The position numbers and the translations under genes are program-made. 52,477 nucleotides of DNA from Acutalibacteraceae bacterium (lineage in GTDB: Bacteria > Bacillota > Clostridia > Oscillospirales > Acutalibacteraceae), in NCBI GenBank assembly GCA_045534095.1, contig JAZSJA010000002.1, forward strand, positions 1 to 52,477, read 5' to 3'. Below are positions 27,197 through 29,662 of the stretch, one piece after another; within the stretch, counting starts at the first letter, position 1; every line of letters starts with the position of its first letter. The notes below the pieces were generated by a model that was given only the letters and a program-made list of their open reading frames with translations, did not search any database and had not been told where the DNA came from.

Positions 27197-27225
27197 TTGA
27201 ATTTTTAATTTAAAAATGATACAAT
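27197..27225 (+). promoter_or_regulatory. Sigma-A type promoter of the tRNA-Arg gene
   Basis: TTGAAT (27197-27202), a 17-nt spacer, then TACAAT (27220-27225), 29 nt upstream of the mature tRNA 5' end. Confidence 0.55.
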
Positions 27226-27254
27226 AATAAGCGTGCCGTTGCACGTTTATATTT

Positions 27255-27331
27255 CCGCCCGTAGCGAAGCTGGATATCGCAGCGGATTCCGATTCTGAAG
27301 GCCGGGGGTTCGAATCCCTTCGGGCGGGCCA
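27255..27331 (+). tRNA. tRNA-Arg (anticodon CCG), 77 nt with encoded CCA
   Basis: Hand-folded cloverleaf. Acceptor CCGCCCG/CGGGCGG. D-arm GCGA-AGCTGGATA-TCGC (G18 G19 A20). Anticodon arm GCGGA-TTCCGAT-TCTGA (4 of 5 pairs, T33, A37, anticodon CCG). 5-nt variable loop. T-arm GGGGG-TTCGAAT-CCCTT. Discriminator G plus CCA. Confidence 0.85.
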
Positions 27332-27366
27332 AAAAATAGACTTGCTTTTGCAAGTCTATTTTTTTA
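27332..27366 (+). terminator. Rho-independent terminator directly after the tRNA
   Basis: TAGACTTGC-TTTT-GCAAGTCTA followed by TTTTTTT. Confidence 0.75.
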
Positions 27367-27367
27367 T

Positions 27368-27558
27368 CCATTGCGAAAGCAATGGCATATCATCAGCCGT
27401 TAGGCTGTATATCATCAACAACGGTTGCGCCGTTGTTGTATCTCATCACACCTTTAGGTGTGTATCAAAAATTCTTTCGCAATGATGATATACAAAGCGT
27501 TCCGCTTTGATGATATGCAATTCCTTGCGGAATTGATGATATACACGGCTTCGCCATG
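27368..27558. repeat. Array of seven short hairpins, each flanked by the decamer YATATCATCA, in two inverted blocks (see findings)
   Basis: Plus-orientation units: 27368-27395, 27394-27417, 27416-27448 and 27447-27470 (degenerate flank). Minus-orientation units: 27483-27508, 27508-27535 and 27534-27558. All were read directly from the sequence. Confidence 0.75.
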
Positions 27559-27627
27559 ATTCAAATATGTAGGGGTTTGAACACATAGGTCAAAAAACAA
27601 AAGGGTTCGAATTTGTACAGCCCTTCC

Positions 27628-27667
27628 AAACGAAAATCCGTTCTCGCAAGAGGGCGGATTTTCGTTT
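27628..27667. terminator. Long hairpin with a GCAA tetraloop (on +); plausible terminator for the bofA transcript arriving on the minus strand
   Basis: AAACGAAAATCCGTTCTC-GCAA-GAGGGCGGATTTTCGTTT is about 18 bp including G-U pairs. It lies about 100 nt downstream of the bofA stop on the minus strand. No clean U-tract lies outside the stem. Confidence 0.45.
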
Positions 27668-27763
27668 CCTAAAAAATGGCACCCATGAATAGAGGATAAA
27701 TTGTAGTTTGCATCCTTAGGCTGTAAATAGCAAAGTATATTTGGCATTTGTGCTTTTTTATCT

Positions 27764-28021
27764 TTACATAAATATCACCCTCAAAACCAAAAGACCAATT
27801 GTCCCGGGTAGACCTAATGCGGCGGAGGTGCCTAAGGTATATGAATTTATAGGTATGTAAACACCGCTGAACGTTGCGGTAAGGTCGATAAGTGCAAGTG
27901 CCGATATCCCTAAAAAAGCAAACGTAAAAATGGTTTTAAAGGGTTTTTGTGTTAGTATAGCAAAAAGAAAATATAAAAATCCGTAAAGGGCGCAAAGGCA
28001 AATTATAATAGTTTTAAGCAT
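27764..28021 (-). CDS. bofA: BofA-family pro-sigmaK processing inhibitor (small two-TM protein)
   Basis: 85 aa. YIPINSYTLGTSAALGLPGTIGLLVL aligns with B. subtilis BofA HVPINLVTTAISGILGIPGIAALVV, and size and topology are the same. Confidence 0.8.
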   Translation of the reverse strand: MLKTIIICLCALYGFLYFLFAILTQKPFKTIFTFAFLGISALALIDLTATFSGVYIPINSYTLGTSAALGLPGTIGLLVLRVIFM

Positions 28022-28077: not shown

Positions 28078-29085
28078 TTATTTATAAAGTTTTTGAATTT
28101 GATTTGCTCGGTCGGTAATTTTAGCCTTTAGAGATTCGGGAGATTCCACAAGCATTTTGTCCGAGAACTGCATTATCCATGTTACAAGACCGTCGCTAAT
28201 ACAGGCCTTATGGCTAAATTTAAATCTGTTTTCACCACTTTGACGTATAAAAATGTTATCTCCAAATCTGTCAATAACCTGCTCTAAAATAGCAGTACTG
28301 CAATCAAGCACAATTTCTTCTTCCTTACCGCTAAACATATTAAATACCTTTGCCGAATAATCAGCGGTATTAAATTCTTGGGTGTATTCGCTAACCTCGC
28401 TAAAATGTCTGAAATCCTCATTTGTCAGGGTAACGTTTTTCATTCTGTCCAAACGCAGATGCATAAGATTGTCATACTTTTCGTTATTGCAAACCAAGTA
28501 GTAGTGGTCGTCTGCCCAAATAAGTGCGTAGGGGCTTACAATCATTTTTTTGGTGTTCAAAACGGGGGTACGGCCGTTTTCAAGAGAGTGACGAATATAT
28601 TTAAGGGAGATTTTTTTCTTGTTGGATATTGCCTTATCAATAGCATCAATACTATAATAAATTTCTTCATTATCGCCCTTATTACGGTTATCGATGAAGG
28701 TGCGAGTTGCAAATTTTTCTGCTTGATATTCGTTAAGAAGTCCCTTTAATTTTTTCACAAGTGTGGCGGTTTTTTTGCGGGTTATAAAATCGGCGGCTAA
28801 AACGGCATCGGTAAGGAGTGCTACCTCAGGGGGTTCAAAATCTCTGCTACTTAAAAAATATCCCGATTTTGCACCCCGTACGCTAATAATATCGTATCCA
28901 CTTAAAACAAGGGCTTCAATATCCTCGTATATTGTTTTGCGGTCGCAGGAAATATCCTGCCTTTCTAAAAGGGCGATAAGCTCGCTTGCGTTTAAGGGAT
29001 GATCTTCATCGGTTTTTTGCATTAAAATATTTAAAAGAGCAAAAATTCGTTGCTTTTGATTGCGTTTACCCGACACACTAGTCAC
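28078..29085 (-). CDS. WYL-domain transcriptional regulator (wHTH-WYL-WCX architecture, YafY/BrxR/CapW-like)
   Basis: It has an N-terminal wHTH (RIFALLNILMQKTDEDHPLNASELIALLERQDISCDRKTIYEDIEAL) and a central WYL-type beta-barrel region (VSPYALIWADDHYYLVCNN). The start is either the GTG at 29085 or the GTG at 29076, which is better spaced from GAGG. Confidence 0.8.
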   Translation of the reverse strand: MTSVSGKRNQKQRIFALLNILMQKTDEDHPLNASELIALLERQDISCDRKTIYEDIEALVLSGYDIISVRGAKSGYFLSSRDFEPPEVALLTDAVLAADFITRKKTATLVKKLKGLLNEYQAEKFATRTFIDNRNKGDNEEIYYSIDAIDKAISNKKKISLKYIRHSLENGRTPVLNTKKMIVSPYALIWADDHYYLVCNNEKYDNLMHLRLDRMKNVTLTNEDFRHFSEVSEYTQEFNTADYSAKVFNMFSGKEEEIVLDCSTAILEQVIDRFGDNIFIRQSGENRFKFSHKACISDGLVTWIMQFSDKMLVESPESLKAKITDRANQIQKLYK

Positions 29086-29086
29086 C

Positions 29087-29662
29087 TCATTTATAATTTT
29101 TCATAATTTTTATAATTTCATCTTCGCTTGAGATTTCGCTAAGCACTTTTTTTAGAGTAGCAGGGGAAATGGAGTAGGGGAGATTAAGCTCTTTTAAAAG
29201 ATACTGCCTTCTGAGTAGGCTGTCACTAGTGCCGCTAAGACCTTGTGACATTAAAAAAGCGGTGGTTATGGGCTTTTTATCTTTTTGTGGAGTAGTAGGT
29301 AAAAAACGCTCAAAAGCCCTTAAAATAATATCTTTATCAATACCCTCCACACCAAGAAGTCCCTCGGAAGAGCTTTTGGTTTTGCGTTTTTCTTTGCCCT
29401 TGATTGGGGGCATAAAAATATGGTGAATTTTATCTTCACTGAGTATATTTTTAAGGTAAGAGCGTATAATTGAGCCGGCACTATCACTATCGGTTAAAAC
29501 TATTATTCCCTTTTCGGATAACCGTTTTATAAGTTCAACTTTTTCTTTGTTTTTAAAAATACCAAAGCCATCTGTGGTGAGTATAACCGTATCAAAAATG
29601 GATGAAAGTTTTATTTTATCGTACTTGCCTTCAACAATTATGGGTAAATCAAGTTTTATCAT
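29087..29662 (-). CDS. TOPRIM-domain protein, ribonuclease M5-like (TOPRIM plus DUF4093-type C-terminus)
   Basis: PIIVEGKYDKIKL (TOPRIM Glu) and VLTDSDSAG (DxD). The 191-aa protein overlaps the holA stop by 4 nt (ATGA). Confidence 0.7.
   Translation of the reverse strand: MIKLDLPIIVEGKYDKIKLSSIFDTVILTTDGFGIFKNKEKVELIKRLSEKGIIVLTDSDSAGSIIRSYLKNILSEDKIHHIFMPPIKGKEKRKTKSSSEGLLGVEGIDKDIILRAFERFLPTTPQKDKKPITTAFLMSQGLSGTSDSLLRRQYLLKELNLPYSISPATLKKVLSEISSEDEIIKIMKNYK

Follow-up and report, generated by a model that had tools for sequence, protein, structure and literature searches.

The array of small hairpins that follows the tRNA-Arg gene in the window (the whole stretch of 52,477 nucleotides that was analysed) is best read as the cis partner of a PF05635 protein at tRNA ends. 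Judging from the sequence, we consider the chances about even that it represents the non-coding part of a cassette widespread at the 3' ends of tRNA and tmRNA operons in gut Clostridia, here as an orphan without the gene, and that its linker is a putative PF05635 recognition motif. In its full form, this cassette consists of a tRNA with CCA, a bidirectional terminator, the inverted hairpin-linker array and an outward promoter; the PF05635 gene follows directly on the distal block, and its transcription leads away from the array. In the window, no PF05635 match was found within 52 kb and the neighbour is a convergent bofA gene, which is why this copy was filed as an orphan array.

The tRNA-Arg gene (anticodon CCG, CCA encoded) was located by ARAGORN at positions 27255-27331 of the plus strand; Rfam assigned it a score of 52.4 bits, and tRNA was the sole significant Rfam match in this region of the window. 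The first base of the cassette lies directly after the last base of the tRNA. Like other members of the family, the window copy begins with an A-run, a stem and a T-run behind the CCA (27329-27364). This is the bidirectional intrinsic terminator T1 (AAAAAATAGACTTGC-TTTT-GCAAGTCTATTTTTT, 27331-27364), which corresponds to inverted repeat I3 (15 nt, 100% complementary) and folds on both strands. There follows hairpin H1, CCATTGC-GAAA-GCAATGG, at 27368-27385, which was assigned from its sequence and conserved position and represents the type A terminal hairpin; the alternative is type B, CCAAGCC-GCA-GGCTTGG. In the tRNA-proximal block (27386-27448, plus strand, defined by the family alignment), the linkers CATATCATCA (27386-27395), TATATCATCA (27408-27417) and TATCTCATCA (27439-27448) are separated by the hairpins H2 (CAGCC-GTTA-GGCTG, 27394-27407) and H3 (CAACAACGG-TTGCG-CCGTTGTTG, 27416-27438). 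Hairpin H4 (CACACCT-TT-AGGTGTG, 27447-27462) forms, together with a degenerate linker and the A/T-rich spacer TATCAAAAATT, the plus-strand segment 27447-27473, both being assigned from the sequence; its position is kept across the family as ..GATACA plus a hairpin on the other strand (alignment columns 95-121).

The centre piece CTTTCGCAATG (27474-27484) had been described in the first-pass annotation as a half-copy of the first hairpin. The relationship is real and closer than that description implied: all 11 nt of the centre piece are perfectly complementary to 27369-27379 (repeat I11), the 5' half of H1 together with its loop. The distal block (27483-27561, minus strand) is an inverted copy of the unit design and ends with the conserved ATT of the family end ..TGATT. 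It contains the inverted linkers TGATGATATA (27483-27492, with a second copy at 27534-27543) and TGATGATATG (27508-27517) as well as the hairpins H5 (27493-27509), H6 (27518-27535) and H7 (CACGGC-TTC-GCCATG, 27544-27558); the single C:A mismatch of H7 on the plus strand is a G:T on the minus strand. With this centre piece, the window element shows three motifs per orientation in two inverted blocks, and the seven units of hairpin plus decamer reported previously were confirmed to the base in position and sequence. The motif TATCATCA occurs in 5 copies within 160 nt, compared with 1.5 expected across the entire 52 kb, and the element folds about 10 standard deviations better than shuffled sequences on both strands. 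Clustering and folding excess together exclude chance.

Beyond the array lies a distal module (27559-27627; repeats D5, D8 and D9) with two motifs that resemble a tRNA T-loop, GGGGTTTGAAC and AAGGGTTCGAATTTGTACAGCCCTTCCA. It is conserved in three further loci (L001, L110 and L062) and is followed by a second terminator-like hairpin, T2 (27628-27667; inverted repeat I2, 18 nt, 89% complementary), which stands directly after the ..CCA-like end of the module and 3' of the convergent bofA gene (27764-28021, minus strand, assigned by Pfam). An exact look-up of the BofA protein returned no record. The stretch 27559-27667, that is, a T-loop-like module of about 65 nt ending in ..CCCTTCCA and then its own A-run terminator, mimics the layout of a tRNA end plus terminator without a second array; modules of this kind were also found between stacked arrays in L113 and L064. 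On the bofA side (28078-29662), the window encodes a WYL-domain regulator (HTH + WYL + WCX) and a Toprim/DUF4093 protein, both of ordinary chromosomal appearance and without a link to the array.

For the scan of other genomes, a pattern of three TGATGAKAT motifs with gaps of 8-30 nt was applied to one genome per species of 185,579 species. At least 120 genome stretches carried this three-linker pattern, compared with about 15 that we estimate to occur by chance. Among the matches listed, hairpins were found between the linkers in 95 of the 120 stretches, and about 12 of the 120 were unrelated coding or tandem repeats. The pattern is present in many relatives, contrary to the refuting condition set in the first-pass annotation, and no fewer than 95 species-level genomes from Clostridia of gut and rumen contain the family. 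The hosts are almost all metagenome assemblies of gut or rumen Clostridia (Acutalibacteraceae, Oscillospiraceae, Eubacteriales, Christensenellaceae); note that nearly all data stem from metagenome-assembled contigs and that some loci represent one locus sampled repeatedly. A scan of viral sequences with the DNA pattern gave matches that were nearly all coding repeats, and a blastn comparison of 27332-27760 with phage and plasmid records gave no match.

A member of the family begins with a T-run and ATCC, which are followed by H1, three to four units of hairpin plus linker, an A/T-rich spacer, the centre piece, three to four units of inverted linker plus hairpin, and the end ..TGATT. Proximal units consist of a mini-hairpin and YATATCATCA, distal units of TGATGAKAT and a mini-hairpin; the commonest layout has three linkers per orientation (42 of 67 elements among the matches listed). 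In agreement with the first-pass annotation, the flanking motif is conserved across the family alignment, in which the linker spacing varies between 19 and 40 bp. The centre piece is a perfect complement of the terminal hairpin over 11-13 nt in 48 of 66 elements, with about ten sequence variants, and over at least 10 nt in 54 of 66. In L113, the two copies have exchanged their partners, a sign of recombination between them.

The pairing within the hairpins is kept while the stem sequences change, as had been proposed for the window copy. RNAalifold recovered the seven hairpins from an alignment of 39 elements; double changes were found in 27 of the 47 consensus pairs and one-sided changes almost nowhere. 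At the H1 position (columns 200-217 of this alignment), each pair showed 17-19 double changes. About 90% of 298 inter-linker segments form stems of at least 5 bp, compared with about 2% after shuffling, and the 1892 stem pairs comprise 1851 Watson-Crick, 8 G:T, 17 A:C and 16 other non-Watson-Crick pairs. The earlier statement that the stems are unrelated is correct within one element; across elements, however, each position keeps its own repertoire, for example ATTCC-N3-4-GGAAT at H6. In the block that is read from outside inward, C(GNA)G and C(GNNA)G account for most loops, and the loops of the other block are the reverse complement, which indicates that the two halves are true inverted copies. 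These two kinds of loop match the extraordinarily stable DNA mini-hairpins GCGNAGC and GCGNNAGC (PMC13037366, PMC3201870).

The heavy covariation would suit a stand-alone structured small RNA like Gut-1, which would be transcribed from the minus strand, start at a promoter-like site at 27593-27564, reach T1 after about 225 nt and have a function of its own without PF05635, such as that of a scaffold or protein sponge. A promoter-like sequence, TTGACC-18 nt-CATATT, is indeed aimed at the array from these positions (minus strand; 9 of 12 matches in a promoter scan); it would place the start near the conserved AATCA beginning and is kept in L001, L110 and L062. Moreover, a terminator always comes next on the minus strand, Gut-1 was judged to be an RNA by its describers (PMC2864571), and a copy found in a phage lies in line with transcription and is then followed by a terminator, before terS. 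However, the box that precedes AATCA forms, at many loci, a perfect extended -10 of the opposite strand (TGCTATAAT or TGATATAAT), which faces outward. G:U pairs are almost absent, and the C(GNA)G triloops belong to the hyperstable DNA mini-hairpin type and are not typical RNA tetraloops (PMC13037366, PMC3201870). The placement relative to the tRNA differs among linker types, and truncated half-elements persist (L244). In view of both sides, we regard an independent small RNA as unlikely.

Strand symmetry, GNA triloops, the lack of wobble pairs and the position between terminator and outward promoter speak for a role as DNA, or for both strands mattering. The sequence TATTATAGCATAAAAG was rejected as a promoter of a minus-strand RNA, because it is a perfect extended -10 on the other strand and faces outward. 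As a proof of a DNA role, the restriction of the stems to Watson-Crick pairs is weakened by bidirectional terminators, which show the same pattern.

The closest known element is Gut-1 (RF01706), which has the same design and a different linker, the window staying below its threshold. The previous statement that no described family matches has thus to be qualified with respect to the design; the best match of the window to Gut-1 (27382-27470, minus strand) gave 16.8 bits (E = 2.2) and did not reach the threshold of 50 bits. Noise matches of Rfam to C/D-box families were caused by the TGATGA string. Both types of element consist of variable, covarying hairpins separated by a short conserved linker, which is GUGAAAU in Gut-1, whereas the window has UGAUGAUAU / AUAUCAUCA (UGAUGAKAU / AUAUCAUCA); in addition, seen from the tRNA, the two block types come in the opposite order. 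True Gut-1 matches, of which the members L113 and L002 scored 63.7 and 53.9 bits, lie right after a tRNA plus terminator, occur as an inverted pair and possess a centre piece complementary to the first hairpin; in L318, L309 and L338, arrays of the Gut-1 type are then followed by a PF05635 gene. The description of Gut-1 by Weinberg et al. 2010 (PMC2864571) is confined to human gut metagenomes and contains no tRNA link, inverted partner or protein partner. Beyond the linkers of the window type and the Gut-1 type, there are at least 8 further linker types; the architecture does not change with the linker type, and neither does the complementarity of the centre piece to H1. In the literature that was searched, the link to tRNA and tmRNA, the inverted-pair architecture, the multiple linker types and the association with PF05635 were not found described; a literature search for repeats downstream of tRNAs yielded nothing relevant.

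ORF clustering around 82 elements identified PF05635 (23S_rRNA_IVP, 23S rRNA IVS protein; NCBIfam TIGR02436, 'four helix bundle protein') as the sole enriched neighbour family. Its gene has a promoter, predicted from the sequence, in which the element end TTGATT is the -35 box and TGcTATAAT follows 17 nt further. The PF05635 neighbours are 74-100% identical across species and different tRNAs, and the genes beyond them differ. A PF05635 gene adjoins only about 13 of about 95 arrays of the ATATCATCA type, which speaks against the partner reading, as does the absence of the gene from the 52 kb of the window. For a test from the protein side, metagenomes were scanned with an alignment of the neighbour proteins; 80 loci were kept, 65 of them with at least 330 nt upstream. 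In 48 of these 65 loci, a tRNA or tmRNA on the same strand ends 214-533 nt upstream of the gene, and in 49 an inverted family of 7-mer repeats lies between the tRNA side and the gene. The 7-mer motif, called by means of a simple 7-mer heuristic, changes with the clade of the PF05635 protein: ATATCAT was found in 14 of 15 loci of the window-type clade, ATATCAC in 19 of 20 of a clade that is largely one human-gut locus sampled in many metagenomes, ATGTAAT in 4 of 6, and (G/A)TGAAAT, the Gut-1 type, in 6 of 7; AATGATG and its relatives are a further clade-linked motif. Among the candidate explanations of the first-pass annotation, a family of protein-binding sites fits best, as the motif co-varies with the adjoining PF05635 clade.

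PF05635 proteins are functionally uncharacterised and are known from insertions in rRNA genes (PMC11270868). These rRNA intervening sequences resemble the cassette in that a small PF05635 gene is embedded in or attached to a stable-RNA gene (PMC11270868); they differ in that the cassette follows the 3' ends of tRNA and tmRNA genes and does not lie inside rRNA helices. An array of repeated motifs, present here, has not been described for them. A structure has been solved for a single relative: 2RLD, an 'uncharacterized protein' whose deposited entry comprises five chains. We take the PF05635/TIGR02436 proteins to be relatives of the retroelement protein Avd. With the defence models of PADLOC, only a weak match to AbiJ (E = 0.003) was obtained.

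As a mechanism, we propose that the conserved linker of 7-10 nt (YATATCATCA here) would be recognised by the matching PF05635 clade and that each array would present this recognition motif 6-8 times. In the mini-hairpins, the structure alone would count: they may act as spacers that set the display of the motif copies. By pairing with H1, the centre piece would turn the tRNA-proximal block into a closed loop. Orphan arrays such as that of the window might be served in trans by a protein encoded elsewhere in the genome. Candidate forms of the ligand are duplex DNA, folded single-stranded DNA, or RNA. Alternatively, the agreement between motif and clade could reflect plain co-inheritance of adjoining DNA and not recognition. 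Folding also predicted a pairing of plus-type with minus-type linkers across the two blocks, giving a stack of four-way junctions; covariation did not back this pairing, as the frequent TGATGAGAT variant is almost never met by a partner C and associations of the flanking bases are weak.

More tentatively, the reading as a PF05635 partner may be extended to the whole set of arrays. These arrays, Gut-1 included, might be the missing nucleic-acid ligands of PF05635/TIGR02436, each clade reading its own motif of 7-10 nt, which several copies would display between hairpins that count by structure alone, and the nucleoprotein complex might mark or guard tRNA and tmRNA ends; we consider this extension possible and worth stating, short of calling it probable. 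It would join two long-standing puzzles, namely Gut-1, which has been listed since 2010 with no function, and PF05635/TIGR02436, which is very common and has a solved structure and no role. If the arrays are a binding platform of PF05635, both can be tested by simple binding assays. If true, this would be a new kind of protein-array module, present in Clostridia that are abundant in gut and rumen; the tRNA and tmRNA ends that it occupies are the main landing sites of integrative elements such as genomic islands and prophages.

The closeness to a tRNA gene, noticed beforehand in the window, is a property of the whole family. A distance of 26-40 nt to the 3' end of a tRNA or tmRNA was measured for 43 of the 73 elements with enough flank, and about 9 further elements lie 185-323 nt from a tRNA. 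The adjoining tRNA is the last of its operon; 13 amino-acid identities are represented, plus tmRNA. In nearly all members, the next feature after the tRNA is a terminator made up of A-run, stem and T-run, the A-run starting at the CCA. Identical terminator sequences were observed beside different tRNAs, which indicates that the terminator belongs to the element and travels with it.

The 3' ends of tRNA and tmRNA genes are classic integrase targets, which would agree with an array that acts as double-stranded DNA with clustered binding sites, be it arm-type sites of a tyrosine integrase that have stayed behind at an attachment site in the tRNA, or a BIME-like insulator or gyrase site between transcription units. 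At 8 loci, an exact copy of the tRNA 3' end (16-23 nt) stands directly before the array terminator with another insert in between, and in L094 the two copies enclose the array itself. An integrase C-terminus adjoins one cassette (L342, in the order integrase C-terminus, tRNA 3' fragment, terminator, array, PF05635 gene), and the position of the array between terminator and promoter would also suit duplex sites. On the other hand, integrases are not enriched nearby, a spacing of 19-40 bp would put the sites on different faces of the helix, and binding to a double strand does not explain why palindromes of free sequence are strictly kept. In the accretion cases, furthermore, the array is older and the other insert is the newcomer. 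Plain duplex sites are in our opinion quite improbable.

We read the tRNA 3'-end copies as signs that other integrative elements enter the tRNA and push the resident array outward. For this reason, the direct repeats were discarded as a proof of array mobility: in 8 of the 9 cases they enclose another insert, which came later than the resident array. An expansion of the array by its own transposition, which the first-pass annotation had considered, is not supported; most of these repeats are explained by such outward displacement. The inserts between a tRNA and its 3'-end copy in L035, L096, L030, L031, L062, L087, L026 and L015 have a length of 150-470 nt, carry a terminator of their own and look like scars of integrative elements.

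Close strains show four different states of the window locus. L001 encodes an OadA identical to that of the window, and its flanks are 98.8% and 94.7% identical, whereas its array is only 70.6% identical: 6 of the 8 hairpins are replaced, including a change of H1 from type A to type B together with the centre piece. L243 and L244 have identical OadA proteins and mutual flank identities of 99.5% and 98.6%, and they differ only between the CCA and a fixed downstream point. In this interval, L244 contains a terminator and half an array, L243 a TTCACT/AGTGAA element that is unrelated and has no hairpins. In other oadA relatives, the equivalent position lacks a tRNA. We propose that the region after the CCA is a hot spot in which arrays may be swapped, truncated or pushed outward. 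As arrays turn over fast between close strains, they would serve well as strain markers and probably cause contigs to break. The contigs of L242, L243 and L244 end within or right after the tRNA/array region, which suggests that arrays break short-read assemblies. L001 (2140-2620) also has about 470 bp more than the window just after T2 (about position 27672 of the window), made up of a hairpin-rich stretch and a terminator, for which Rfam reported no family at the gathering threshold; in a relative with 89%-identical oadA (L251, 3400-5398; also L252), a phage terminase region replaces the downstream tRNA-Arg, which is a further state of this position in the chromosome.

The four states of one locus, the sharp left boundary at the CCA, the conserved right end ..TGATT and the DNA-type hairpin loops on Watson-Crick-only stems would all be compatible with a non-autonomous mobile element that inserts after the CCA and serves as a single-strand DNA substrate of an HUH/Y1 transposase, in the manner of REP/RAYT or IS200/IS605. 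The first-pass annotation had listed such a substrate, and the neighbourhoods speak against it: neither HUH/Y1 enzymes nor integrases nor other recombinases are enriched around the arrays, and no Y1/HUH gene was found by neighbour clustering within 2.5 kb of 82 elements or by Pfam among 20 ORFs of the window. No pair of empty and filled sites shows a clean insertion of the array alone, and the case of L094 can be explained otherwise. The stems are not conserved within a genome, unlike those of REP elements. We judge a transposase substrate to be very improbable. For none of the rival readings, be it a small RNA, a transposase substrate or duplex sites, was a gene association found that would back it.

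The REP/BIME elements of enterobacteria, which are associated with RAYT, share with the array the short palindromes, the alternating orientation, the mosaic composition, the location after the 3' ends of transcription units and the many copies per genome. However, REP conserves the palindrome, whereas the array conserves the linker and has stems that differ within and between copies; it also lacks the GTAG/CTAC motif, and no RAYT gene was found near 82 elements or among the tested ORFs of the window. Elements derived from IS200/IS605 have subterminal hairpins at both ends and insert 3' of a fixed target of 4-5 nt without duplicating it; the array always has its left boundary right after CCA and its right end at ..TGATT, and a clean pair of empty and filled sites was not found. 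Integron attC sites likewise combine a conserved structure and free sequence with adjoining short conserved core motifs; in contrast to them, the array has no R''/L''/L'/R', GTTRRRY core, gene cassettes or intI, and its units measure 15-25 nt as opposed to 57-141 nt. CRISPR arrays have repeats of at least 23 nt and non-palindromic spacers, whereas the repeat of the array has 9-10 nt and two orientations and its 'spacers' are palindromic. Nor does the locus resemble an attachment site of the lambda type, as the distal piece of the window shares only a T-loop-like 10-mer with tRNA-Arg and integrases are not enriched. In plasmid centromere or operator arrays such as parC of R1, blocks of short repeats are bound by a small protein encoded next door. 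Like the cassette, parC-type arrays place two blocks of short repeats by the promoter of a gene for a small nucleic-acid-binding protein; they differ from it by plain duplex repeats without intervening hairpins and by the absence of a tRNA link.

Several minor observations concern variants of the array and its linker. A hairpin-less relative (L243, 3605-3745; L098, 3850-4085; L120) consists of tandem (A/C)TTCACT heptamers and inverted copies of them after a tRNA terminator, and ends with the last hairpin of the family, CAAGGCTTYGCCTTG; in L098 and L120 it is then followed by a divergent PF05635 gene. The existence of this type indicates that the inverted motif blocks, and not the hairpins, are the universal part. 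The phage copy mentioned above is found on contig L128 (8640-8800; also in L168 and L216) and comprises six hairpins with ATGATATG as linker, all in one direction; this array is flanked by a RusA gene and a Cys-rich ORF of 75 aa on one side and by a terminator, terS, terL and the portal gene on the other. The linker itself reads as a weak extended -10 box. In the window, the promoter region of tRNA-Arg (27209-27233; TTGAAT, 17 nt, TGATACAAT) resembles positions 27475-27499, a minus-type linker together with its flank (TGATGATATACAA).
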